Below are positions 10,198 to 46,111 of a stretch of 64,000 nucleotides of DNA, one piece after another. The first letter of the stretch is position 1; the number at the start of each line of letters is the position of its first letter. The notes beneath the pieces are model-generated. The model was not told the origin of the DNA, made no database searches, and saw only the letters and a list, made by a program, of their open reading frames with translations. The translations under genes were made by a program, and so were the position numbers. The stretch is from Escherichia typing phage 1. The stretch lies in the sequence record KP869100; one strand, 5' to 3'.

Positions 10198-10273
10198 TGG
10201 AGAATCCGAAGGGACTCGAACCCTTATAAACCTGTTTTGCAGACAGGCACATAGCCGTTTCTGTCACGGATTC
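10198..10273 (-). tRNA. tRNA-Cys (anticodon GCA)
   Basis: minus-strand cloverleaf: 7-bp acceptor GAATCCG/CGGATTC, anticodon loop CUGCAAA, T-loop TTCGAGT, discriminator U, encoded CCA. Confidence 0.7.
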
Positions 10274-10277
10274 AAAT

Positions 10278-10370
10278 TGGAGGAAGATACCAGACTTGAA
10301 CTGGTACACCGATTTCTCAGCTACTGGCAGTTTAGCAAACTGCTCCCTTACCTTTTAGGGTTAATCTTCC
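10278..10370 (-). tRNA. tRNA-Ser (anticodon GCU), type II
   Basis: acceptor GGAAGAT/ATCTTCC, anticodon loop UUGCUAA, long variable arm, T-loop TTCAAGT, encoded CCA. Confidence 0.65.
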
Positions 10371-10372
10371 AT

Positions 10373-17785: not shown

Positions 17786-18000
17786 AAATCGCAGATATTA
17801 TAGATTTATATCAAACTGCAAAGAGTCATGGCTATATAACCTCAATTGGAAAGAATAGTCACTATGATGCTTTGACTGGAATGTATTTCAGGGCAATGGC
17901 TCAATCTAGTGAACAACACTTAATGGTTTCTTCCAGTGAGTTTACTTCGTTTCTCTATTGCAGCAAAATTATAAATCGCAGGAGAACTGAAAAATGCTAA
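17767..18000 (+). CDS. hypothetical protein
   Basis: 77-aa ORF. Confidence 0.3.
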   Translation: MCSSQLEIADIIDLYQTAKSHGYITSIGKNSHYDALTGMYFRAMAQSSEQHLMVSSSEFTSFLYCSKIINRRRTEKC

Positions 18001-18584
18001 CAGTAAGTTTTAATTACAATAGTGATGGCTCTGTATCAATTAATTCACCATATGCAAATGACCTACTTAAAGAGCTAGTCAATCAGTGTGATAGAGGTCT
18101 TCACTATGTTCAAAATTCTTTTAAACAGAAGACTATTGCTAATAACTTGATGCGTGTAACAGTAACGGCATCGAATCCAAATTATGACTTTGATAGTGAA
18201 AGTCCGTACTCATTAGTTGCGCTTGGAGAGAGCAGCCAATTCAAACTTGTTTGCCACGACTCAGAAACATTCCTTAAGGTCTTTTCCAACCTTATCCATA
18301 ATAATAAGTACAGCTACGTTGATGGTAGTGTAAATTTCTATCCAGCAAACTATACATGTTTGTTGGTTGATAATATGAGAAAAAGTAAGCAAGAGCCTAC
18401 GGAAATTTCATTTGATGTGAACTCTAGTCCAGACGCAGAAACAAGTAAGAACTTTGATATGAGTTACGCATTGTCACTTAGTAAGAAATCCGAGTTCATT
18501 GATTATGTCAATGGATTTGGTTTTAAGTTTGATGAGAGTATGAATCTTAAAAAACTTAAGAACCTACTTAAGACCAAAGCTTAA
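17994..18584 (+). CDS. hypothetical protein
   Basis: 196-aa ORF followed by hairpin GGGGCTGATGCCCC. Confidence 0.5.
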   Translation: MLTVSFNYNSDGSVSINSPYANDLLKELVNQCDRGLHYVQNSFKQKTIANNLMRVTVTASNPNYDFDSESPYSLVALGESSQFKLVCHDSETFLKVFSNLIHNNKYSYVDGSVNFYPANYTCLLVDNMRKSKQEPTEISFDVNSSPDAETSKNFDMSYALSLSKKSEFIDYVNGFGFKFDESMNLKKLKNLLKTKA

Positions 18585-18593
18585 GTGTGAATA

Positions 18594-18615
18594 GGGGCTG
18601 ATGCCCCTTTAACTA
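18594..18615 (+). terminator. candidate intrinsic terminator
   Basis: GGGGCTGATGCCCC hairpin followed by a T-rich tract. Confidence 0.35.
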
Positions 18616-18631
18616 TTTATAAGGATATTTA

Positions 18632-19003
18632 ATGAAAGCTAAGAGTGCAAAAGACTTTTATTGCTTCCTACAATCCTATATCAATTCCGTGCAAAATGGT
18701 GAAAGGTACAACCTTAATGATGTTATCCCAACACCTTTGACATGGAGACTCAGTAAATGGCCTGAAGAAGATATTACACCAACAATCGAACAATGCACCT
18801 ACAAACCCGAAATCAATATTCCAGACTCTGAGAATCTATTATATCCAATGTTCCATATTGTTGGTCTTGGAAGATTCCTTATGGATATCCAGTATATAAT
18901 TGGTAAAGGTTATAAGGTTAAAGGTATTGTTGTTGGTGATGTATCTCCGAATCACAAAGGTTATTTTAGGCTAAACGCACATTTAGAGGCTGAAAAGAAA
19001 TGA
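18632..19003 (+). CDS. hypothetical protein, paralog of the N-terminal domain of the next gene
   Basis: shares KxxSxKDFxxF...WPEEDI...MDIQY pattern with the N-terminus of the 19000-19881 product. Confidence 0.5.
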   Translation: MKAKSAKDFYCFLQSYINSVQNGERYNLNDVIPTPLTWRLSKWPEEDITPTIEQCTYKPEINIPDSENLLYPMFHIVGLGRFLMDIQYIIGKGYKVKGIVVGDVSPNHKGYFRLNAHLEAEKK

Positions 19004-19881
19004 TTAAAGCAAAGACTTACCCAGACTTCAAAGAGTTTGTGAAGGGCTTCATTGCAAACGTAAAGGCTGGTAAGAGGTATGATTTTAGAACATATCAAGA
19101 GGCTATTTTACCACTTACCTATAGCTCGTATTGGCCTGAAGCTGATATTGCAGAAGTTGAGAAGTTTGACTATAAACCAGACTATAAAGTCCCATTTAGT
19201 GATGAGTTGCTTTACAGTGTTGGTGCTCAAATGAGAACTTCTGACTTCTTCATGGACTTACAATATGCAATTATCAATGGTAAAGACGTTGATACAGTTT
19301 ATTGTGAATGGCTGGCAAGAGTTAAACCATTCTCAATGTTGAATGCTAAGTTGAAGGACGCTATCAAGCCACCATCAATCACTCAGCAACCAACCAATCA
19401 AACAGTAAATGAAGGTGGTACACTTACCCTAAGCGTTATTGCAACTAATGCCACTGGATATCAATGGAAAAAGGATGGTGAGGATATCACTAGCGCCACA
19501 TCTGCAACCTACACAAAACAGTCTGTAGAACCTTCTGATGCAGGTTCATACACTTGCGTTGTAACAGGTGCAGGTGGTTCTGTCACTTCTAGCCCTGCAA
19601 CGGTTACTGTTAACGCACTTCCGGTAATCACTCAACAGCCAACCAATCAAGAAATCAATGAAGGTGAGACCTTAACGCTGAATGTTGTGGCAACAGGTGC
19701 GACAGGTTACCAGTGGAAGAAAGGTGAGGAAGACATCCTTGATGCAACTACTGCAACTTACACCAAAGAAGGTGCGACCGCTGCTGATGCAGGAAGCTAC
19801 ACCTGTGTAGTTACTGGTGCAGGTGGCTCTGTAACATCCAATGCAGCAACAGTTACAGTTAACCCAGCAGGGGAGGCGTAA
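19000..19881 (+). CDS. protein with two tandem Ig-like repeats
   Basis: two about 80-aa repeats (ITQQPTNQ...GYQWKK...DAGSYTCVVTGAGGSVTS...ATVTVN) after a paralogous N-terminal domain. Confidence 0.55.
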   Translation: MIKAKTYPDFKEFVKGFIANVKAGKRYDFRTYQEAILPLTYSSYWPEADIAEVEKFDYKPDYKVPFSDELLYSVGAQMRTSDFFMDLQYAIINGKDVDTVYCEWLARVKPFSMLNAKLKDAIKPPSITQQPTNQTVNEGGTLTLSVIATNATGYQWKKDGEDITSATSATYTKQSVEPSDAGSYTCVVTGAGGSVTSSPATVTVNALPVITQQPTNQEINEGETLTLNVVATGATGYQWKKGEEDILDATTATYTKEGATAADAGSYTCVVTGAGGSVTSNAATVTVNPAGEA

Positions 19882-20345
19882 TGCAACTCTCAAGAAAAGG
19901 TTTAGATGCTATTAAGTTCTTCGAAGGTCTGGAGTTAGAGGCTTACGAAGATTCTGCCGGAATCCCAACAATCGGGTATGGGACAATCCGTATTGACGGA
20001 AAACCTGTTAAGATGGGTATGAAAATTACTGCTGAACAAGCTGAACAGTATCTTCTCGCGGATGTTGAGAAGTTTGTTGCAGCAGTGAACAAAGCTATCA
20101 AGGTTCCAACTACTCAGAATGAGTTCGATGCACTTGTAAGTGAAACATACAACATCGGTATCACAGCTATGCAGGATTCCACATTTATCAAGCGCCACAA
20201 TGCTGGTAATAAGGTAGGTTGTGCAGAAGCTATGCAGTGGTGGAACAAGGTTACAGTCAAAGGTAAGAAGGTCACTTCAAACGGTCTGAAAAACAGACGT
20301 AGAATGGAAGCTGACATTTATCTTGACAGTGTATACCCAAAGTAA
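19881..20345 (+). CDS. endolysin, GH24 (T4 lysozyme-like) family
   Basis: FEGLELEAYEDSAGIPTIGYGT catalytic motif typical of phage lysozymes; 154 aa. Confidence 0.8.
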   Translation: MQLSRKGLDAIKFFEGLELEAYEDSAGIPTIGYGTIRIDGKPVKMGMKITAEQAEQYLLADVEKFVAAVNKAIKVPTTQNEFDALVSETYNIGITAMQDSTFIKRHNAGNKVGCAEAMQWWNKVTVKGKKVTSNGLKNRRRMEADIYLDSVYPK

Positions 20346-20354
20346 TATCTTCAT

Positions 20355-20380
20355 AGGCTCCTTCGGGAGCCTTTTTTATT
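20355..20380 (+). terminator. intrinsic terminator
   Basis: GGCTCC-TTCG-GGAGCC hairpin followed by TTTTTT. Confidence 0.65.
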
Positions 20381-20396
20381 TTCTAAGGAGAAAGCT

Positions 20397-20795
20397 ATGA
20401 AACTTTGGGCTAGTGACTTTGGAACTTTTAAGTACACTCGTAATGGCTCGCTTGTACGCATTGTCGGGAACAATGTGGTTTCAAGAGGTGACAAGGTATA
20501 TACACGGTTTACTGTAGAGCTTGTTGAGCTGTCACCTATTGAGTCTGTGAACAATGGCCTGTTCAAGTTTGAGACTTACAATGTCAACGAACATGGACAA
20601 TTCAACCCTCTTGGTGAAAGTGGACTTGATATTATTTCAGAGCACCCATTGACAAAAGAGCAACTCGCAAGTTATTATAAAACTGTTCTGGAAAGGCAGT
20701 TAGCAACACATGAACAAGAAGCTAACTATCATTTACAACATTGCGAAGCTTTAAGAGCAAAAATAGAACAAGCAGAGAGAGGTTTTTATGAATAA
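20397..20795 (+). CDS. hypothetical protein
   Basis: 132-aa ORF with GGAG-type ribosome-binding site. Confidence 0.45.
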   Translation: MKLWASDFGTFKYTRNGSLVRIVGNNVVSRGDKVYTRFTVELVELSPIESVNNGLFKFETYNVNEHGQFNPLGESGLDIISEHPLTKEQLASYYKTVLERQLATHEQEANYHLQHCEALRAKIEQAERGFYE

Positions 20796-21177
20796 AGAGA
20801 TTCAAGTAAAAGTTGACACCTTTGGCCATGATGGTCGAGAAGATGCTGGACTTGCTGACGCAGTGATTTTTGAGTGTAATGGAAATATTAGTCTTCGCTT
20901 TACAGGCTCAGGTAGCACCCTTCGCAGAATGCGAGATGATGCAGATGGTTGCCCTGTATTTGGCTGGTATGACATGGAGTTTCCTCTTTACGCCATCCAT
21001 TATCCAGATGGTGGAGAAGACTGGACAACTCAATCAATCCGCGATGAGCTTAATGGCATTCCAGTTGAGCAAGAAGAGCAAGAGCCTGTTGAACTCACAT
21101 TCACTTTTATCAAAGAAGAGAAAGTTGGTGATTTGTCTGTAACTGAAGCAATTCAAGTCTCACAGGTTATTCGTTAA
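20788..21177 (+). CDS. hypothetical protein
   Basis: 129-aa ORF. Confidence 0.45.
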   Translation: MNKEIQVKVDTFGHDGREDAGLADAVIFECNGNISLRFTGSGSTLRRMRDDADGCPVFGWYDMEFPLYAIHYPDGGEDWTTQSIRDELNGIPVEQEEQEPVELTFTFIKEEKVGDLSVTEAIQVSQVIR

Positions 21178-21470
21178 TGAGTAAAGTACAGGTTGTTTTC
21201 CCTATTTGTGACTTCTCACTAGAGCGTGAACTTGACCTGTACGAAGAAATTACTGACGAAATTATCTGGTCTGTTGTAGAAGAGGCTATCAAGAAGCTGT
21301 ATGGTGGCCTCTTAAATCCATCAAGTAAGAAGTTAAGCACTAAGCAAGTAGCTGACCCATATGTTTCATACGATGCCTACAACAAGCCTTTTGAAAATAC
21401 CTGCTTTGACCTTATGGTAGGTAATAACAAAGTCAACTATTTCTTCGTCAGAGAGTTTAACGATGAGTAA
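21177..21470 (+). CDS. hypothetical protein
   Basis: 97-aa ORF. Confidence 0.4.
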   Translation: MSKVQVVFPICDFSLERELDLYEEITDEIIWSVVEEAIKKLYGGLLNPSSKKLSTKQVADPYVSYDAYNKPFENTCFDLMVGNNKVNYFFVREFNDE

Positions 21471-21807
21471 GCTCCATGTCACAGTTTACAAAAACTTCTC
21501 AGATATCAAAGAGTCTTTAACAAATAAGCTTGACTTACAACGTAAAAGACTCTTTTTAATGTATGACATAGACAACTACAACCATCCTAAAGAGTTTAAC
21601 TACAAAGATGGTACAAAGGTTGTTGAGTTTGAAGATTCTGTGACGGTGTATGTCAAGCATGACTTACCAGCAAAGTATATAGGGATGTTAGAGTACTACA
21701 TATTCAAACATACTGGTATGCGTGGTGAATCTGTTAAGATATCTTCTATAGAAGTTTTTGAGAAACCTAACACACAACTTAAAAAGTATTTAATGAGGAA
21801 ACTGTAA
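21463..21807 (+). CDS. hypothetical protein
   Basis: 114-aa ORF. Confidence 0.4.
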   Translation: MSKLHVTVYKNFSDIKESLTNKLDLQRKRLFLMYDIDNYNHPKEFNYKDGTKVVEFEDSVTVYVKHDLPAKYIGMLEYYIFKHTGMRGESVKISSIEVFEKPNTQLKKYLMRKL

Positions 21808-22388
21808 TGTCAGAAGAACATGAGCATATCCAACCAGAAGTTACATTAGTAAAACATTTCGGAAATGTAGAAGGCTGTGTAGCACTTTTTCAGACTAACA
21901 TCAATTCTCCAGTCAAACTGTGCAAATTGACGATAAACACTAACAACATCAGTGTATGCGTGAATGAAGAAGTACAATACTTCAAATTCAATGATAAAGA
22001 GGTTGATGCTGCACTACTGAAATACAGAGCAAATCTTGAAAAAGATATTGACCATAAAGAGGTTGTGAGTCTCTTTGCAGACCTACATAAGCTTCTTGAT
22101 AAGGTTGAAAAAAGAACATACTACATGAATAATGGCTCTATCATTACCACTATGATTTCACCATGTATCTCTGAGCCAATCTTCACAGATGATGGTGCTT
22201 ATTATATTGTAGCTTCGGCAGTGTCTGATTGGTGGTTAAAAAATAACGCCCTGAAAACAGTGATTGATGCTATCAGAGAACACATCCCTACATTTAGTCC
22301 GTGGAAGGGTAAAGGTGATGAATTTATCGCACTGTTGAGTGAAGAGAGTAACAAGCGCAGTGCATTACTGCCTAAAAAATACTCTTGA
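21807..22388 (+). CDS. hypothetical protein
   Basis: 193-aa ORF. Confidence 0.45.
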   Translation: MSEEHEHIQPEVTLVKHFGNVEGCVALFQTNINSPVKLCKLTINTNNISVCVNEEVQYFKFNDKEVDAALLKYRANLEKDIDHKEVVSLFADLHKLLDKVEKRTYYMNNGSIITTMISPCISEPIFTDDGAYYIVASAVSDWWLKNNALKTVIDAIREHIPTFSPWKGKGDEFIALLSEESNKRSALLPKKYS

Positions 22389-22460
22389 CCGAGTATACAA
22401 TATTGATTATGATGGGAGCTATCGAGAGGTAGTTCCCTTTTTAGTTTCTGGAGAATAGAT

Positions 22461-23006
22461 ATGGCTAAAGTGAAAGAACACGATAAAATTATTTTGTATG
22501 TTAAACAGAATCCTTCAAAGAGTGTTGAGGCTGTTGTAACACACATCTCACACAATGGAACAGTTTATTTTCAACCACTGAAGAACTTAGACTTTGACAC
22601 AACACCAAACCACACATTTAGTACTTCTGCAAGACTGTGTGCTGGAACTGTATACTCGACTGCTGAGATTGAGTCCTTATCTTTCACAGGTGCTTACAAA
22701 AACTTTATAGGGATTGCTTTAAAGGACTCTGAGGAATCTTTTAAATTCTTCATGGAGACCAATAAAGGCTGTTATGCACATGTTATGCCAGTCTATAAGA
22801 AAGTTGACACAGAACTTACAAGCAAGTGCGAAGAGATTAGCAGCGACCTGAAGGAGCGTAAAACAGCTATTCAGAATGCTATTTACATCATTGAGAGGGA
22901 CCACTTAGAAGTTCTTTTCAGAGATATGCTAAAAGCAGGGTTTACCCCAAACGAAATTACAAGAGAAACACAACGCCAGTTCAGAAACGCTATGGTGAAA
23001 GAATGA
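22461..23006 (+). CDS. hypothetical protein
   Basis: 181-aa ORF. Confidence 0.45.
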   Translation: MAKVKEHDKIILYVKQNPSKSVEAVVTHISHNGTVYFQPLKNLDFDTTPNHTFSTSARLCAGTVYSTAEIESLSFTGAYKNFIGIALKDSEESFKFFMETNKGCYAHVMPVYKKVDTELTSKCEEISSDLKERKTAIQNAIYIIERDHLEVLFRDMLKAGFTPNEITRETQRQFRNAMVKE

Positions 23007-23221
23007 AAAAACTAACTACAGTTGAAGATTACTACAAACTGTCCTTGTTAGAACAGTATCGCAGAAGCCAGAATATCAGAAAATGCTATGGTAAACACGC
23101 TGAAGGTGACTTTTACCATTGTTACGATGCAGATTTAAAAGGTGTAACACCTAGAGGAAAAGTTCTGCAAAGATTTGTTGACCTTGAATGGAACAAGAGA
23201 TTGAGAGGGGTTGGAAAATGA
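23003..23221 (+). CDS. hypothetical protein
   Basis: 72-aa ORF. Confidence 0.35.
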   Translation: MKKLTTVEDYYKLSLLEQYRRSQNIRKCYGKHAEGDFYHCYDADLKGVTPRGKVLQRFVDLEWNKRLRGVGK

Positions 23222-23721
23222 TTTACGAAGAAAGATATAAGATAGATTACCAGAAGACTGGTCATCATGTCTCTTTAAGAGTAACCAAACCAAATGGAGA
23301 TACCGGTATCATAGCACATTTTGGTGGTGATTATTGGTATGGTACAGGTTGCTTTGAAGGCTACACTCAAGAATACTTGAAAGCTTTCTACAGAGACTTT
23401 ACAAACGACTACAACAGGGTTGTTGACGAAAAGAATAAGTGCATTAAGCATGAATACCATGCCAGAGGTTGTCTGAATATTGTTATGATACTGGCTTTCT
23501 TCTTAGCAATGTTACTGGCAGTATCAGCAATTAGCTGCATAGCTCAAGATTTGACAATTACACAGATTACTGCAAAGCTACATGATATCTGGTACTTGTA
23601 TACTGTTCCTTTAGCTGGTATTATCATCTCACTAATAAGATTCAGAGTTCATAAGAAACGACTTAAGGATTCCGAGGTTAAACTTGAAGAGGTAAGTAAA
23701 GAATGCAACCTACAATTATAG
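23218..23721 (+). CDS. hypothetical membrane protein
   Basis: ORF 23188-23721 trimmed to the ATG at 23218; two hydrophobic helices in the C-terminal half. Confidence 0.4.
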   Translation: MIYEERYKIDYQKTGHHVSLRVTKPNGDTGIIAHFGGDYWYGTGCFEGYTQEYLKAFYRDFTNDYNRVVDEKNKCIKHEYHARGCLNIVMILAFFLAMLLAVSAISCIAQDLTITQITAKLHDIWYLYTVPLAGIIISLIRFRVHKKRLKDSEVKLEEVSKECNLQL

Positions 23722-23797
23722 CTGTATGTGTTCGTTTTGCAATCGCTGAAATGATTAACAAGGCAATCTTAAAAGATGCCTATGGAGAGACTAAGTA

Positions 23798-24022
23798 ATG
23801 ATTAAGACGCCTGTACCAATTTTTGGATTTCCTTCTATAGAAGAGTTCAAAGTTTACCTTGACAAAAACTTCTACAACGAGCAACCTGTTACTTTGCTGA
23901 AGAGTGACTTATCAGAGCTTCTTGATATGGTTATCAAGGCAACTTCTGAGAAGGAACCTGAACAGAAAGCTGAGAAGAAGACTAGTAAGAAATCCGATAA
24001 GAAGACTGAAAAGTCTGAGTAG
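23798..24022 (+). CDS. hypothetical protein with lysine-rich tail
   Basis: 74-aa ORF. Confidence 0.35.
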   Translation: MIKTPVPIFGFPSIEEFKVYLDKNFYNEQPVTLLKSDLSELLDMVIKATSEKEPEQKAEKKTSKKSDKKTEKSE

Positions 24023-24074
24023 TAGCTTGAGGGGTTACTTGATAGCCCCTTTGTAGAACTTAGAAGGTAGCGAA

Positions 24075-24497
24075 ATGAAAGAGCTTATTGGTAAAAGATT
24101 GACAGTTTACTGCTCTAAAACAAAGAAACCACTTACTTCTGTGAAGGTCTTTGATGTTGACACCACTGGTGTAGAGTACCCAATCCAATGCACAATAATT
24201 ACTCCATTCCATGCAGATGATATGGATTTTAAAGAGTGTGAAGTGATATCTTTTAATGCTGATGGGTATTGGAGAGGTAAGTTAAACAAGCAATCAGAAG
24301 ATTTTGATATGCAAATCATTATCAATGAAGGCTATATCGGTGTAAAAGATATCCTCGTAGAAGCCTATGAAGAAGGTATAATTGATATTGTGCATGATGT
24401 TGAAAAAGCTTTAAAGCTTGTTATGCCGCATTTAGAATCTGGAAAGCTGACTTTAGAGATGCTTAATAGGATTATTCGGAGAGCTTATGAAAATTAA
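24075..24497 (+). CDS. hypothetical protein
   Basis: 140-aa ORF. Confidence 0.45.
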   Translation: MKELIGKRLTVYCSKTKKPLTSVKVFDVDTTGVEYPIQCTIITPFHADDMDFKECEVISFNADGYWRGKLNKQSEDFDMQIIINEGYIGVKDILVEAYEEGIIDIVHDVEKALKLVMPHLESGKLTLEMLNRIIRRAYEN

Positions 24498-24951
24498 AGA
24501 AGTAGTGCAAAGAGCAATGCTTGATAATTCTACTAAAGATGAGATGTACACAGAAATTTGTGATAAGTTGAACTGCTCAAGACATGCTGCTAAGGTTCTT
24601 GTACATTGTTTTATTTGGGAATGCTCAGAAGCCTATATGAAACACGTAGCTTTTGAGAGTTCTCATTTACTCGGTGATGTAAAAATAGGTGTAGCACTAA
24701 AAGAGCCTGAGATGAAAACAGTACCTAAGGTCGGTAATGTGTATAAACTAAAAAATTTTATTACAGGCGAGATTGTTGCAGAAGGTGAAGTGCAACAGGT
24801 TTATCATGATGGTAAATATCTGTTTAAGATATTCGAGTATGATAGTCGTTACAGACACTTATGTGGTATTACATTTTTAGTTTCAGAGGATGACCTCATC
24901 AAGAACAATAGTAATAAATTCGCAGTACCAGAATATCAAGTTTTACGATAA
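24487..24951 (+). CDS. hypothetical protein
   Basis: 154-aa ORF. Confidence 0.45.
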   Translation: MKIKEVVQRAMLDNSTKDEMYTEICDKLNCSRHAAKVLVHCFIWECSEAYMKHVAFESSHLLGDVKIGVALKEPEMKTVPKVGNVYKLKNFITGEIVAEGEVQQVYHDGKYLFKIFEYDSRYRHLCGITFLVSEDDLIKNNSNKFAVPEYQVLR

Positions 24952-24964
24952 TGGTGTGATAGAT

Positions 24965-25513
24965 ATGGAAAAAGATAACTTAAAAGATGTTGAAGGTAAC
25001 TATCTAGTCCTTGACTGGAAGGATGTTCGGGAAGCACTCTCCGAAGAAAATCTTGACTGGTTCGAACAAATTATCTTTGCAGTACGGCATAACCGAGAAG
25101 TTGAAAATGGTAAAGAGCCACTTGAAGGAATCTTTGTAGATAGGTCTTATCCATTCTATGAAGACACTTTGCAGAAAGTTAAGATGTACTTTAGACAGAA
25201 GAACCGTAAAGTGGTCACTATGGTATCTCTTGGTGGACAGAATATGTCTGTGATGGAAGATATTAATCCTAAGAGACCGAGTAAAGGTATCTGTATAAAA
25301 ATCACAGGACATGAAGAGTATATCTCAGTGGATGACTTTAGTGCATTCTGTAATGGCTCTTGTGTCTTTAATGGTTTTCACTATGATATCCGAGTGTACC
25401 CAATCAAGGGAGATGATATCATGATGCAGGTATTCGATAATAACAACGGCTTTACTCATTTTTATCAGACAACCAAGTCATCACTAAAAACAGTTCTGGA
25501 AACACTGATTTAA
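24965..25513 (+). CDS. hypothetical protein
   Basis: ORF 24890-25513 trimmed to the ATG at 24965. Confidence 0.4.
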   Translation: MEKDNLKDVEGNYLVLDWKDVREALSEENLDWFEQIIFAVRHNREVENGKEPLEGIFVDRSYPFYEDTLQKVKMYFRQKNRKVVTMVSLGGQNMSVMEDINPKRPSKGICIKITGHEEYISVDDFSAFCNGSCVFNGFHYDIRVYPIKGDDIMMQVFDNNNGFTHFYQTTKSSLKTVLETLI

Positions 25514-25523
25514 AATATCTTAA

Positions 25524-25552
25524 GAGCCTCCTTAATTGGGGGCTTTTTTTAA
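25524..25552 (+). terminator. intrinsic terminator closing the plus-strand block
   Basis: AGCCTCC-ttaatt-GGGGGCT hairpin followed by TTTTTTT. Confidence 0.6.
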
Positions 25553-25560
25553 TTTTTATA

Positions 25561-27100
25561 AAAATTTTATCGGTTGTTCCAACCTCTGGGTCACCATCAT
25601 ATGTGAATAAAATATCTATCCTTCTTAACAACCTTCTTAATCTTACTCTCTATATATAGTTATATAGTACTATATAGTGTCTTAGTAACTATCTAGTGGT
25701 CTTAATAGCCCCTCTGTATAACCCTTCTAAATAGCCCTCTAAACACTCTTCTAACAAGCCTTCTTAACAACCTATACAATCACCTTAACCATCTCTCTAT
25801 ACGCTCTTAGAAGCCTCTATACACCCCTTAATCTCTATGTCAGCTATGATACTCTCTATAGGTGTTCACTAGGCACTACTAAGCCTCTATATAGACTGTT
25901 TTAACAAACTTAACAGGAATATCTTTACAGACCTTATCTCACAAGGTCTAACACGGTACTAACAAGGTATCTTATAAGCCTGTTTCTACCTGTATTTTTA
26001 AAAGACTGTATAAGTAATTATTCAGAATTTTAAAATTTTTATAAAATAAGACTGTCAAGTCATTTTTTAGGGTCTTTGAAGGAACTCAAAAATATCTGTA
26101 GAAGATGTATATCTGCTTGGTAGCCCTTAACAGCTCCCTTACAAGTACTTTGCAAAATTTTAAAATATCCTTAACAACATCTTAACAACTCTCTCAAGCT
26201 CTTAACATCTCTTCAAAGGTCTTAACAGTTTCTTAACAGAACTAACAAGAACTTAACAGTTTTCTAACAAGCTTTGGTAGGGCTTTACAGAATCTTAACA
26301 GATAACTAACAAGAGCTAACAAGTTAATTTTAAAGAGTTATTTTGTTAAGATAATTAACAAGTTCCTAACAAGTGTTTAATCTTTTTAACAAGCTATTAA
26401 CATGGTCACTATCTCTTTTCTTATCGTTCCCTTTCTCTCTTAGTGATTCTCTAAACATACCTTTTAAAAGCTCTCTATAGCTCCTTGTAAGCTCTTTTAA
26501 GCCTCTTCCTAGTATCTACCCCTCAACTGTATGGATAGCTCTTTATAGGGCTTTACAGGAGCTTTTAAGGCTATGTCAAAGGTTCTTACAAGGCTTTTAC
26601 GTGGTCTTAACAGAGATTTAACAAGGGGCTAACAAGTTGCTAACAAGTGCCTTAAAAGCATAACTATGTAGGGATTGTTAAGAAATTGTTAAGGGGGCTA
26701 GCATTTACGTAACTTTTAAGCTACTTCAAAGTAACTTTATAGCCCCTATAACATACTTTTAAGACACTAACAAGCCCTTTTTAGTAGTTCACAAGATAGC
26801 TAACGAGATGATAAAGCTCACACCCTTATAAGATTCTTTTAAGGCTCTAGAAAGCTCTATAAAGGGCTTTTTAGAGTGGGTTAATATGATTGCTTAAGTT
26901 AGGTTGATAAGGCTGTTATAGGGCTTTATAGAGCGTTTAAATGGTTGCCCTTCCCTTTCGGGTTATGGGCTTATATTTAAGTTGATTTGATAAGGGGTTA
27001 TAGAGTAAGCTATAGAGTTATTGCTTTTAAGGTACGGGATAGATTCTAGGAAGGAAAGGAAAGGGATTGTATAGAGTCTCTTTATAGACGTAAAAAAGCC
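25561..27100. repeat. 1.5-kb ORF-free, G-depleted region packed with short direct repeats
   Basis: no ORF of 60 aa or more on either strand; repeated words CTTAACA, CTAACAAG, CTCTATA, CTTTATAGGGC and CTTTTAAG; flanked by convergent operon ends. Confidence 0.6.
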
Positions 27101-41679: not shown

Positions 41680-41708
41680 AATACTTTCCTCTTAGTTTAC
41701 TGTTAAAT

Positions 41709-41883
41709 TACTTATTAAACATTTTACCAGAACCACCACACATAGGGCAACAACCTGCTCTTGTATACCCTTCTCCGTTACAGTAGTCACACTTCTTGTG
41801 TTCTGCAAAGTACTTACAAAGAAGATAAACAAGGACTGCTACACTACCAAGTGACAGTAAAATTTCTACCCAATATGCTTGCA
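41709..41883 (-). CDS. small membrane-anchored protein with two CxxCxGxG (DnaJ-type zinc finger) motifs
   Basis: 58-aa ORF below the track threshold, translated by eye: hydrophobic N-terminus then CDYCNGEG and CPMCGGSG. Confidence 0.35.
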
Positions 41884-42213
41884 TGACTCACCCCTCATGT
41901 TTTTGTAAAGGATAAAGCTTCTGTCATGGACGATACTTGTAGATACTGCAAAGTTACTTTCAAGCATCTGTTTGTTTGGATTGTAGAAGCTTTTTTTAAA
42001 CTCGTCAAGTGCAAATTGGTGATGGTCTGGAAGACCTTTTACACAAACTTTTATTGTGATTGCTGCTGCAATCTTGCCAGTCAGTTCTTCTTTAGCTGCT
42101 ACTAAAATTTTGTTAAGGAACTTTTTACCATCTTCAGGTTTCTTAATGTTCTCCCAACGTTCTTCTAAGATAATGTTGATGTTCATCTCTTTGATTTTCA
42201 TAGTTTTCACCAA
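41866..42213 (-). CDS. hypothetical protein
   Basis: 115-aa ORF. Confidence 0.45.
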   Translation of the reverse strand: MVKTMKIKEMNINIILEERWENIKKPEDGKKFLNKILVAAKEELTGKIAAAITIKVCVKGLPDHHQFALDEFKKSFYNPNKQMLESNFAVSTSIVHDRSFILYKNMRGESCKHIG

Positions 42214-42604: not shown

Positions 42605-44386
42605 TTAAAGCTGCTTGTCAATATTATTTCGAATATCACCAAGAGTTGTGTAACCGTACTGCTCAGAGTCGCTAAAGACTAAACGTAAAGCACAAGCTGG
42701 ATGTTCAAGTGCATCTGCAAAGCTCTGGAATCCATAGCCATCTACAGCTTTCAAATTCTCACCATCCCACATAGGTGCTACACCACCAAAGGCAGATTTC
42801 TTAACACCACTATCTGTTTTAGGGTCTTTTGCAAGCATAATCTCTTTGCCACCAATGCTTGCAAGAGTTGCTTTGACAGCAAATGCAAAGGTGTCACGAG
42901 TCATGTACTGGTAAGTGTAAGAGCCTACACCAAACACCACGTTAGAGCTTGCAAACCCCATTTCATACAGACGCTTCAGGATTTCGTTTGCACGTTCCAA
43001 CGTGATAGAGTCGCCATAGATAAGTCCAATGTGCTCATCCAGTACCTTAAAACCTTTAGAGTTGATAGTTCCTCCAAAGATGTTATACAAGGTCTTAATA
43101 GCTCCATCAATCTCTGCTACAGGGCGTGTTACAACGTTTGCAGAACCAACCATATAAGCGTTCTTCAACATCACTGTATCAGCAACTTCAAAGTCTTCTC
43201 TGTCAACAACCATTTCGTAGCCTTCTGACAGTAGCCATCCAGCAATACCATAGTTGATGTTTTCAAGCTTCATGTTAAGAACAGCATTCAACATTGTGTC
43301 ACTGACTTCCAGCTTGCTTAGGTGCTCGTAATAAGCCTTCTTAGCACATTCTAAGTGGATTGCTTTATAACCTGTGACAATATGTACAGGGTCTCCAGAG
43401 TCAGGGCGAATTACCAGTTTGCCATCACGTTCCATAATTTCTTTACGAAGTGCTGGTAAGATTTCTGACACAGTTCTCCAGAAGTTATAAGTATCTGAAA
43501 CAATACTTGCAATACCTGTTGGGTAAGTTTCTGTTAAGAAACGACGGAAGGTTTGTAACTCACCTTTAAAGCGTCTTTCTTCTTCAATCAACTCATTACC
43601 ACCTTCCCAAGCAATGTTTGCACACATTACAGAGTGCTCAGTGGCTGGTACAGAGCTACCAATATCAGAGATTGGGTAGGACTGTCCATAGATTCGTTTA
43701 GCCGTGTATACAGCAGGGAAGCTATCAGTCCCTTTAAAGCTGGTTAAGTGACCTACAGCGTTAAATGCGTCATCAGTAAAGCCGGACATACCACGCATAG
43801 CAAAATCATGGCACTGATAAGGTAAATGTAAGTCATTGTCACAAGTAAGGTCAGCCCACTTCTTACAGATGCGTTTGTAATGCAATGCAATAGTTGCAAT
43901 GGTGCAAGCCTTCCAAATTTCAGCAGAGAAAGCATCTTCCAGATAACCTGCTACCCAATGAAAACCTGAAACAGTGTTCTGAAAGACAATCATCGGGACA
44001 CGCATTGGAACAACTGTGCCTTCTTCTACAGCGTATACTTCAACTGGTAGATAACCTAAGTCGTGAAGTGCTTCCCAATGCTCTCGACCGATAGCATCTT
44101 TACCCAGAACACCATTCATGACTTCTAAGATTTCATCAATGGCTTCTTTTTTATCACGTTCAAAGAAAGTGGCATTCCAGTGGTCTATCAAGTAATCTTT
44201 AACAAAACGTTGAATACCAAAAGCCACTACACCGTCAATTGCTAAAGGGCTGTTAAACCATTTATCACTACGTGGTGTCAGGTTGAACATCAAGTATTCT
44301 GTTGCACTAGGATACTGGTAAACATGACCAGATTTGTAAGCATCTGCATTTAAACCTGCTGGTACTGCATAAAGTGATTTAGTCAT
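42605..44386 (-). CDS. nicotinamide phosphoribosyltransferase (NAMPT) family protein; Namat-like candidate
   Basis: 593-aa ORF, N-terminus LNADAYKSGH typical of NAMPT/NadV-family enzymes; immediately downstream of a PRPP-synthetase-like gene. Confidence 0.6.
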   Translation of the reverse strand: MTKSLYAVPAGLNADAYKSGHVYQYPSATEYLMFNLTPRSDKWFNSPLAIDGVVAFGIQRFVKDYLIDHWNATFFERDKKEAIDEILEVMNGVLGKDAIGREHWEALHDLGYLPVEVYAVEEGTVVPMRVPMIVFQNTVSGFHWVAGYLEDAFSAEIWKACTIATIALHYKRICKKWADLTCDNDLHLPYQCHDFAMRGMSGFTDDAFNAVGHLTSFKGTDSFPAVYTAKRIYGQSYPISDIGSSVPATEHSVMCANIAWEGGNELIEEERRFKGELQTFRRFLTETYPTGIASIVSDTYNFWRTVSEILPALRKEIMERDGKLVIRPDSGDPVHIVTGYKAIHLECAKKAYYEHLSKLEVSDTMLNAVLNMKLENINYGIAGWLLSEGYEMVVDREDFEVADTVMLKNAYMVGSANVVTRPVAEIDGAIKTLYNIFGGTINSKGFKVLDEHIGLIYGDSITLERANEILKRLYEMGFASSNVVFGVGSYTYQYMTRDTFAFAVKATLASIGGKEIMLAKDPKTDSGVKKSAFGGVAPMWDGENLKAVDGYGFQSFADALEHPACALRLVFSDSEQYGYTTLGDIRNNIDKQL

Positions 44387-44431
44387 CTTTTAATCTCTCT
44401 CAAAATGGGGCTTTTAAGCCCCTATAAAGTT

Positions 44432-45328
44432 TCAATCAAGGTTTGCTACAGTAACTTGACCATAATGTGTTAAGCCACGGTCTTTAGCTTCCCCTAAAGA
44501 GTTTGTAGTGTAGATATGGTCAATACCATTGTCAAGAAGGTTTTCAACATCTTTAGAGAAGATACCATGTGTTACATAGAGTTCCACACGTTTTGTACCT
44601 GCTTCACGGAGATGCTTAGCTGCTTCTATGAAGGTTCGACCACCATCACAGATATCATCCAGAATCATGACGGTTTTATCTGTCAAATCAACATCATCAA
44701 GGATTCGCATACCAGTAATTTCACCAGTCTTAAGGTTACGCACCTTAGACATTGTGATATATGGTTTATCCACCTCTTTAGCGGTCTCTGCAACCTTCTT
44801 AGCAGCACCTGCATCTGGGGCTACTAAGTAATCAACCAGTGGGTCATTTGCATAGTGGACTGCAATCTCCTTTTGAGGAATACTCTGGAAGCAGTTAAAC
44901 AGGTTATCTGGTACATAGCTGTGAGGGTCAACTGCACAGACTGCGCCAAATCCCATTGCATTAATCTGTTTAGCAAAAACCTTTAAAGCTGCTGCGTCAC
45001 CTTTAAACATGTGACGGTCATATCGTGCATTTGGTAAGTAGTAAAAGATGACAGTCTTTAAAGCATAATCATGAGGAATTAAATCATCAATTGCTTCTTT
45101 AGCAAGTGCCACAGCAAACAATGTGTCCTTGTCATAACCTTTTACAATCATAATCACATTGTTGATGGATGATGCTGCATAAGCAGTAAAATCAACAAAC
45201 TCTGGCGAAAAGTGTCCACCAATCTCACCAGAAGGGAATTGGACGATGTTAAACTCTTCTTCATGAGTCCCTTTAGTTGGTGAATGAACTGTAACACGGA
45301 TAGATGTTTTCATAGTTTTCTCTCTCAA
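44432..45328 (-). CDS. ribose-phosphate pyrophosphokinase (PRPP synthetase) family protein; Adps-like candidate
   Basis: VMILDDICDGGRT phosphoribosyl-binding motif and DPHS segment of Prs-family enzymes; 298 aa. Confidence 0.6.
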   Translation of the reverse strand: MREKTMKTSIRVTVHSPTKGTHEEEFNIVQFPSGEIGGHFSPEFVDFTAYAASSINNVIMIVKGYDKDTLFAVALAKEAIDDLIPHDYALKTVIFYYLPNARYDRHMFKGDAAALKVFAKQINAMGFGAVCAVDPHSYVPDNLFNCFQSIPQKEIAVHYANDPLVDYLVAPDAGAAKKVAETAKEVDKPYITMSKVRNLKTGEITGMRILDDVDLTDKTVMILDDICDGGRTFIEAAKHLREAGTKRVELYVTHGIFSKDVENLLDNGIDHIYTTNSLGEAKDRGLTHYGQVTVANLD

Positions 45329-45603
45329 TCAAAAGTTACGTTTGTTACTGCCATTGCAGATTTGCATTTTGCAGGGTCTACAACGTGATAAAGTACACTA
45401 CAGTTACCTGTGCTGTCTGGTACAGGTTTAACCCATTGTTGCTTGACAGTTGGTTCGCCTAAGTCTTTGTAAGAACCATCTGTAAAGTTGTTTACCATCT
45501 CAAGTGCAATTGGCTCTGGAACATGACCACGTATCATGTACATTTCACAACCATTACCTCCTTCACTGACTAATGGTAAAATCTCCCACTTTTCTTTAGT
45601 CAT
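45325..45603 (-). CDS. hypothetical protein co-transcribed with the Prs-like gene
   Basis: 92-aa ORF, stop/start overlap with 44432-45328. Confidence 0.4.
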   Translation of the reverse strand: MTKEKWEILPLVSEGGNGCEMYMIRGHVPEPIALEMVNNFTDGSYKDLGEPTVKQQWVKPVPDSTGNCSVLYHVVDPAKCKSAMAVTNVTFD

Positions 45604-46111
45604 TATAAGTTGCCCTATAAACTGTCTCGAACTTCAACAGGAGAGATATTGCCAAATCTGTATAGTTGTTGTCAAGCACATCTGGCATATTATTTTTGAT
45701 ATATTTCTCTTGCTCTTCATAGGTCATCTTAGGGATACTTAGGAGGCTATCTCCTTGCTTCTGGTTATCAGCTTTAGTTTGGATAAACCAGTTTGCACAG
45801 TGATGTTCACCACCTTTTGTAACAGGTTTGTGATGACCTAATGTAAATATTTGCTTACCCGTATACCTGCAAAGATTGTTCAGTGTTGCAATGGTGTTCT
45901 TCACAACACACCATTCATACAGGTTATCTATTGTGTAGTGTGGGTAATAACGGACAAGTGCTCTTTCACGTAAGTTACCACGATTCCAAAGAACCATGTG
46001 ATTAGAATTTGAAGGGTCATATTTGTGGGAGTCTATAAACTCTTGACGCTCATCAAAGCTGAGTCTTAGAACTGACATTGCAACCGAACGTTTCAGGTTT
46101 GACAGATACAT
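45596..46111 (-). CDS. HNH endonuclease
   Basis: GHHKPVTKGGEHHCANW...KADNQKQG resembles an HNH nuclease core. Confidence 0.5.
   Translation of the reverse strand: MYLSNLKRSVAMSVLRLSFDERQEFIDSHKYDPSNSNHMVLWNRGNLRERALVRYYPHYTIDNLYEWCVVKNTIATLNNLCRYTGKQIFTLGHHKPVTKGGEHHCANWFIQTKADNQKQGDSLLSIPKMTYEEQEKYIKNNMPDVLDNNYTDLAISLLLKFETVYRATYND

Follow-up and report, generated by a model that had tools for sequence, protein, structure and literature searches.

A gene pair annotated as Prs and Nampt in a Felixounavirus very probably encodes the known NARP1 pathway of NAD+ reconstitution

Introduction

NARP1 is a two-enzyme phage pathway for the reconstitution of nicotinamide adenine dinucleotide (NAD+), and the names NARP1, Adps, and Namat were given by Osterman et al. 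(bioRxiv 10.1101/2024.02.11.579819). The purified SPbetaL1 homologs convert ADP-ribose (ADPR) and ATP into ADPR-pyrophosphate (ADPR-PP), and ADPR-PP and nicotinamide into NAD+; when phosphoribosyl pyrophosphate (PRPP) and ADPR-PP were offered together to the SPbetaL1 enzyme, NAD+ was the sole product, and SPbetaL1 Adps yielded no PRPP-synthetase product (bioRxiv 10.1101/2024.02.11.579819). Deletion of genes 79-80 from phage Bas63 raised its sensitivity to SIR2-HerA roughly 20-fold and led to a deeper NAD+ depletion, and the protection conferred by these genes is independent of host pncC and nadR, as it also works in the double-deletion host; ADPR-PP (m/z 720.010) was found only in wild-type Bas63 infection of SIR2-HerA cells (bioRxiv 10.1101/2024.02.11.579819). 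This study concerns a stretch of 64,000 nucleotides from Escherichia typing phage 1 (record KP869100; hereafter the window), in which two adjacent minus-strand genes, encoding a Prs-like and a NAMPT-like protein, were assessed as a NARP1 locus.

Counter-defense has also been shown by deletion in FADO (DSR2) and by knock-in into SBSphiJ (Thoeris), and the published NARP1 targets comprise Thoeris, DSR1, DSR2, SIR2-HerA, and SEFIR. Among the Adps-clade genes, 97% have a Namat gene within 10 genes. The preprint of Osterman et al. reportedly appeared later in Nature, in 2024. Two extended operons are known as well. NARP1-AP (bioRxiv 10.64898/2026.01.28.702374) includes Adpp, a Macro-domain phosphatase expected within two genes of NARP1, and in NARP1 with RyDEP (bioRxiv 10.64898/2026.05.28.727677), an RyR-domain glycosidase is involved in the recycling of cyclic ADPR (cADPR). 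Since ADPR-1''-phosphate cannot be used by NARP1 (bioRxiv 10.64898/2026.01.28.702374), aRES defeats a NARP1 that lacks Adpp in its operon.

For Namat, the SPbetaL1 enzyme is available in complex with NAD+ and with nicotinamide (9W5W, 9W5X; PMC12774641). A selectivity clamp helix (SCH) specific to Namat follows the pattern GS-X-Phi1-X-Phi2-X-Phi3-TRD, in which aromatic X residues stack on the adenine of ADPR-PP/NAD+, and it is accompanied by a variable selectivity clamp loop (SCL) with R, K, or Y as its third residue; stacking falls to the fourth residue where the third is K or Y, as in Bas63 (PMC12774641).

A preliminary description of the window had read the gene pair as a candidate NARP1-type Adps and Namat, not separable by eye from Prs and NAMPT, and this reading held up on synteny with Bas63 genes 79-80, membership of the Adps clade, the Namat motif, and the published tables. 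The novelty that it implied did not, as NARP1 has already been published and the corresponding genes of KP869113 are in Supplementary Tables 1 and 2 of that paper. The locus is thus an already known NARP1 rather than a new one, and a literature look-up alone could have confirmed the reading.

Results

The window is 100% identical to KP869113 (E. coli O157 typing phage 15, TP15, a Felixounavirus) and shares 91-97% identity with about 200 further Felixounaviruses. In the tables of Osterman et al., KP869113_00113 is an Adps homolog with the entry "Namat within 10 genes: Yes" (Table S1), and KP869113_00112 is one of the "Namat homologs", its genomic environment being given as "Adps-associated" (Table S2). 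Escherichia phage JohannRWettstein is the BASEL phage Bas63 (MZ501086.1; accession confirmed in Table S3 of the same paper), and its genes bas63_0079/0080 are syntenic with the window pair, being placed between rIIA and nrdG with the same neighbors; they also carry the same Pfam domains (bioRxiv 10.1101/2024.02.11.579819). In the window, rIIA, nrdG, and nrdD were recognized around the locus from Pfam, PHROG, and the record annotation.

The Prs-like gene was first delimited as a mechanical open reading frame (ORF) of 298 aa at 44432-45328 on the minus strand, with a TTG start and a translation that includes VMILDDICDGGRT. The ORF, the family, and this motif are as previously described, while the start at 45328 could not be upheld: judging from the sequence context, the ATG at 45313 is the most likely start of adps (44432-45313, minus strand, 293 aa), and the TTG at 45328 would be a mere mechanical ORF start. 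The ATG at 45313 is preceded by a purine-rich stretch, GAGAGAGA, and the 293-aa start is annotated alike in the KP869113 and Bas63 records. Conventional resources assign the protein to PF00156 and PF14572 (Pribosyl_synth; Pfam) and to phrog_619 "ribose-phosphate pyrophosphokinase" (PHROG, 2.4e-96), and it is labeled "prs, ribose-phosphate pyrophosphokinase" in GenBank (AKE47295.1). Of the NCBIfam models, the broad TIGR01251 subfamily model alone is passed (120.5 vs 113 bits); all Prs equivalog cut-offs are missed, with 102.9 vs 296 and 89.5 vs 297 bits as the best full-length scores.

Because Table S1 holds cellular Prs besides Adps, clade membership was tested independently. A neighbor-joining tree (274 columns, BLOSUM62 distances, 200 bootstrap replicates) was built from the window protein, 16 Adps-clade proteins including the verified SPbetaL1, FADO, and Bas63 enzymes, and 6 cellular Prs, i.e., E. 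coli b1207 and five Table S1 entries flagged "No". Prs and Adps were separated in 200/200 replicates, and the window protein fell inside the Adps clade beside FelixO1 and Bas63; its identity to E. coli Prs is 22%. Where Prs has DLHAxQIQGFF, every Adps of the set has D/E-x-H-S (DPHS in the window protein), and the ribose-5-phosphate loop reads DD[IL][CAST][DS][GYF]G..F in Adps (DDICDGGRTF in the window protein) vs DDxIDT[AG]GT in Prs. Neither of the two canonical Prs motifs is thus present in the window protein, which carries K190 in alignment with K162 of SPbetaL1 Adps, a residue whose replacement (K162A) inactivates that enzyme (bioRxiv 10.1101/2024.02.11.579819).

The NAMPT-like gene, namat, occupies 42605-44386 on the minus strand and encodes 593 aa; as the preliminary description had stated, the ORF listing gives an N-terminus with the LNADAYKSGH motif (...GLNADAYKSGH). 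The protein contains PF04095 (NAPRTase, 7.5e-35) and PF18127 (NAMPT_N), matches phrog_448 "nicotinamide phosphoribosyl transferase" at 1.7e-202, exceeds the cut-off of the NCBIfam equivalog NF006629 (469 vs 405 bits), and is labeled "putative nicotinate phosphoribosyltransferase" in GenBank (AKE47294.1). Its top PDB matches in a phmmer search are 9W5W/9W5X (E about 6e-128), while Xanthomonas and mammalian Nampts follow at 1e-52 to 1e-40, so that the E-values for Namat and Nampt differ by about 75 orders of magnitude in favor of Namat.

The SCH of the window Namat reads GSYTYQYMTRD (aa 488-498) and contains the aromatic residues Y490 and Y494; its Phi3 residue is Met, usually Asn or Val, and Bas63 is identical there. 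One homolog in Table S2 has GMGGGLLQEVTRD at the equivalent position. In the SCL (...SDKW...), K42 is aligned to R40 of SPbetaL1 and followed by W43, which is the Bas63 arrangement. NAD+ is contacted by 20 residues in the crystal structure of SPbetaL1 Namat. Mapped through the phmmer alignment (offset verified on F189, S190, and R192), 16 of them were identical in the window protein, including R327, D221, F195, Y17, and R497; the four that differ are K42, A196, S460, and Y490, the last of which keeps the aromaticity of F392. The catalytic residues known from mutagenesis are retained as R327 (= R306, essential), D221 (= D215), and F195 (= F189), and the catalytic His is H251. Relative to SPbetaL1, the window Namat contains insertions of 77 aa (aa 351-427, window 43106-43336), flanked by the RPDSGDP strand and the FGG motif, and of ~15 aa (aa ~258-272, about 43571-43615). 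The sequence of the 77-aa insertion is confined to Felixounavirus/Mooglevirus-type phages (252 records), and the insertion is not discussed in the structural paper (PMC12774641).

Within adps, the 5' ~450 nt (44850-45299) form a mosaic block with 58-75% DNA identity to Bas63, flanked by sequence with 90-98% identity. Of codons 1-185, 54 differ synonymously and 60 non-synonymously between the window and Bas63; of codons 186-293, 23 and 6 do so, respectively. The Adps matches in Felixounavirus fall into two discrete classes of identity to the window protein, at least 90% and 60-80%. The 5' block of adps has the appearance of an old allele that was swapped by recombination, and Bas63, on which the experiments were made, carries the other allele.

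A spacer of 45 nt separates adps from namat, its direct neighbor on the same strand. An intrinsic terminator, found by a pattern scan, is located at 42593-42570 on the minus strand, 12 nt past the namat stop, and consists of a 10-bp stem, a 4-nt loop, and the T-run UUUUUAAUUU; with a folding free energy (dG) of -16.6 kcal/mol (z = -3.4), none of 200 shuffled sequences was equally stable, in agreement with the strong terminator that had been noted at the end of the operon. The spacer itself contains a GC-rich hairpin at 44407-44422 (minus strand; GGGGCU-UAAA-AGCCCC then AUUUUG; dG -12.6 and z -2.8 in a 53-nt context). Bas63 has the same hairpin apart from a single substitution in the loop; the divergent relatives lack it and have a spacer of only 11 nt. 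This hairpin may possibly act as a leaky terminator or as an RNA-stability element.

Upstream of adps lies a gene for a 92-aa protein (phrog_4726) at 45325-45603 on the minus strand. It had been described as fused to the operon at the 5' side; the gene is there, and the two coding sequences are separated by 11 nt, with the junction reading ...TTT GAT TGA GAGAGAAAACT ATG AAA ACA. With adps starting at 45313, the genes are therefore tightly packed, neither fused nor overlapping. The next gene upstream (45596-46111, minus strand), which shares 8 nt with the 5' end of the 92-aa gene, encodes a 171-aa protein that matches phrog_3500 at 1.7e-92 and has weak HNH-endonuclease similarity (phrog_2214 HNH, 7.5e-6), in line with the annotation as HNH endonuclease in relatives. 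The transcription unit probably also takes in this 171-aa gene as its first gene, and a terminator-like hairpin from the pattern scan at 46151-46129 (minus strand) is likely its upstream boundary.

As an ORFan, the 92-aa gene is restricted to this lineage, and its predicted structural model offers no informative fold. Within its family, 43 of the 92 positions are invariant, and the order 177aa-92aa-Adps-Namat is retained in relatives whose 92-aa protein is just 55% identical. No Macro domain (PF01661, PF14519, PF20016) was found in the 92-, 171-, 114-, 115-, and 58-aa neighbors by Pfam hmmscan at E<=10, a search less sensitive than the HHpred used in the NARP1-AP study. Likewise, no RyR domain (PF02026) was matched by Pfam in the two upstream and three downstream genes, and the 92-aa model had no RyR-like structural match. 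In phage VpaE1_ev78, the 171-aa and 92-aa ORFs are apparently fused into one 261-aa protein (UniProt A0A653G1G4). The region of 45596-46111 also gave two-piece matches to several relatives, in which an additional ~470 bp, annotated as an HNH endonuclease, are inserted.

A number of other observations were made. In Table S1 of Osterman et al., FJ373894_00125 of Shigella phage Ag3 is apparently a single polypeptide with an Adps N-terminal and a Namat C-terminal part, and this may be either a natural fusion of the two enzymes or an artifact of assembly or frameshift. The phrog_12872 profile (547 positions) matches both window proteins. A 58-aa protein is encoded at 41708-41884 on the minus strand, with rIIA on one side and the genes downstream of NARP1 on the other; it has a predicted N-terminal hydrophobic segment, CxxCxGxG-like Cys motifs, and weak DnaJ zinc-finger-like matches (E 0.002-0.007), and is annotated as a putative membrane protein in Bas63. 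Further away, 10198-15340 (minus strand) holds a cluster of 26 tRNA genes, and a tRNA gene cluster is typical of Felix O1-like phages. At about 18000-27000, both the GC and the AT skew switch sign (positive at ~18-26 kb, negative elsewhere), which suggests a plus-strand-transcribed gene block inside an otherwise minus-strand window.

Discussion

With a high degree of confidence, this Felixounavirus locus encodes the NARP1 pathway of NAD+ reconstitution. Following the published pathway, an NAD+-depleting defense (SIR2-HerA/Nezha, Thoeris, DSR1/2, or SEFIR) would cleave NAD+ into ADPR and nicotinamide, after which Adps (44432-45313) would transfer pyrophosphate from ATP to the terminal ribose of ADPR, yielding ADPR-PP. 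Namat (42605-44386) would then swap the pyrophosphate for nicotinamide and so form NAD+ directly, bypassing the host enzymes that salvage nicotinamide mononucleotide (NMN). An adenine selectivity clamp, composed of K42/W43 in the SCL and Y490/Y494 in the SCH, is predicted to make Namat prefer ADPR-PP over PRPP.

Orthology, clade membership, the conservation of motifs and residues, and the operon anatomy were established in this analysis; the activities ascribed to TP15 Adps and Namat are by analogy with their SPbetaL1 and Bas63 orthologs. Several points weigh against this assignment. The N-terminal ~150-185 residues of the window Adps belong to another allele class than those of Bas63, from which the in vivo evidence comes. 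Moreover, Bas63 Adps could not be purified (bioRxiv 10.1101/2024.02.11.579819), so that the enzymology rests on the SPbetaL1 homolog, which is 31% identical to the window Adps. Namat retains PRPP to NMN activity in vitro (PMC12774641; bioRxiv 10.1101/2024.02.11.579819), and some NMN synthesis is therefore possible, while the score of Namat above the NF006629 cut-off indicates that generic hidden Markov models do not separate both activities.

These last points would also fit a conventional Prs and Nampt pair, which would convert ribose-5-phosphate to PRPP and further to NMN, leaving the formation of NAD+ to host NadR/PncC, either in a NARP2-like manner or as general salvage. Such a pair would agree with the names given by Pfam, PHROG, NCBIfam, and GenBank, with the scores above the TIGR01251 and NF006629 cut-offs, and with the in vitro formation of NMN from PRPP by Namat. 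However, the Prs-like protein is far below the Prs equivalog cut-offs, lacks the Prs motifs, and groups with Adps at 200/200; SPbetaL1 Adps makes no PRPP-synthetase product, and the Bas63 counter-defense persists in a host deleted for both pncC and nadR. Furthermore, Namat carries the adenine clamp, and no Nmnat or Nudix domain, as expected of a NARP2 partner, was found among the nine neighboring proteins scanned, the partner adjoining namat being Adps. The comparison with housekeeping Prs and Nampt that the preliminary description had called for thus favors NARP1 in all discriminating tests made, and a conventional pair is considered extremely improbable.

Two further explanations accept NARP1 and ascribe an additional property to this lineage. 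The locus could be a lineage-specific extended NARP1 operon, in which the 92-aa protein, perhaps together with the 171-aa HNH-like protein, acts as an accessory counter-defense factor comparable to Adpp or RyDEP. Two terminator-like hairpins enclose the four genes, which show an 8-nt overlap and an 11-nt spacing, the gene order is kept even where the 92-aa protein has diverged to 55% identity, almost half of the positions of its family are invariant, and extra genes in other NARP1 operons provide a precedent; set beside the uninformative model and the absence of Macro and RyR matches described above, this explanation is deemed very unlikely. Alternatively, the TP15/wV8-type N-terminal allele of Adps may differ from the Bas63/FelixO1 allele in regulation, oligomerization, or escape from an Adps-targeting host factor, as might be expected from the sharp bounds of the divergent block and the two discrete Adps classes. 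Against this stand the retention of the catalytic Lys and of all clade motifs, and the similar numbers of synonymous and non-synonymous codon differences in the block, which fit an old exchange better than a recent adaptation, and a functional difference between the alleles is accordingly judged very unlikely. Taken to their furthest, these ideas would give a Felixounavirus-specific NARP1 unit whose 92-aa accessory feeds in a non-canonical NAD+ breakdown product or inhibits an NADase, or two discrete Adps alleles that reflect escape from an Adps-targeting host factor; this is a very improbable outcome as well.

The main value of assigning the locus to NARP1 is in the correction of database annotation, i.e., that the two genes are Adps and Namat, together with a few small lineage-specific features; no open question is answered by it. 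About 250 Felixounavirus records in GenBank/PHROGs still label the pair as ribose-phosphate pyrophosphokinase and nicotinate/nicotinamide phosphoribosyltransferase, and one related record labels adps as nadR. As Namat scores above the NF006629 cut-off, automated pipelines will go on propagating the wrong function. For phage typing and therapy with Felix O1-like phages, the presence of NARP1 predicts resistance to NAD+ depletion of the SIR2-HerA, Thoeris, DSR, and SEFIR type, while the missing Macro-domain Adpp predicts sensitivity to aRES.

Comparison with known systems

The NARP1-AP and RyDEP operons share with the window locus the Adps and Namat core and the packing of further small genes into the unit, and differ from it in having a Macro or an RyR gene, neither of which was matched by Pfam among the two upstream and three downstream genes in the window. 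Given the absence of both domains nearby, TP15 is predicted to be aRES-sensitive and to be without the cADPR-recycling extension of RyDEP. NARP2 of KVP40 is distinguished by its Nmnat partner, which the window locus lacks. Canonical Nampt/NadV (human, Xanthomonas, and KVP40 NARP2) has the fold, the attack of nicotinamide on a ribosyl-1-pyrophosphate, and the Pfam family in common with the window Namat, whereas the aromatic adenine clamp is found in the latter. In the same way, housekeeping Prs (E. coli b1207) resembles the window Adps in fold, Pfam family, and pyrophosphoryl transfer from ATP, but belongs to a separate clade and is only about 22% identical, the substrate-loop motifs being replaced in the window protein.

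Within NARP1, SPbetaL1 Adps (WIT26982.1) is part of the same two-enzyme pathway and has the same catalytic Lys, although the window Adps is only 31% identical to it. SPbetaL1 Namat (9W5W/9W5X; NAR 2026, PMC12774641) shares with the window Namat the essential Arg (R306 = R327), the SCH motif, and 16/20 NAD+ contacts; it lacks the 77-aa and ~15-aa insertions and has R40 where the window protein has K42/W43. The closest system is the NARP1 of Bas63, which is of the same genus and has the same position, gene order, and strand, a Namat of the same length (593 aa) that is 98% identical (583/593), a 92-aa neighbor that is 98% identical, and the same terminator and intercistronic hairpin, and from which the window locus differs in its Adps, 77% identical (227/293) on account of the other allele in the N-terminal ~150-185 codons.

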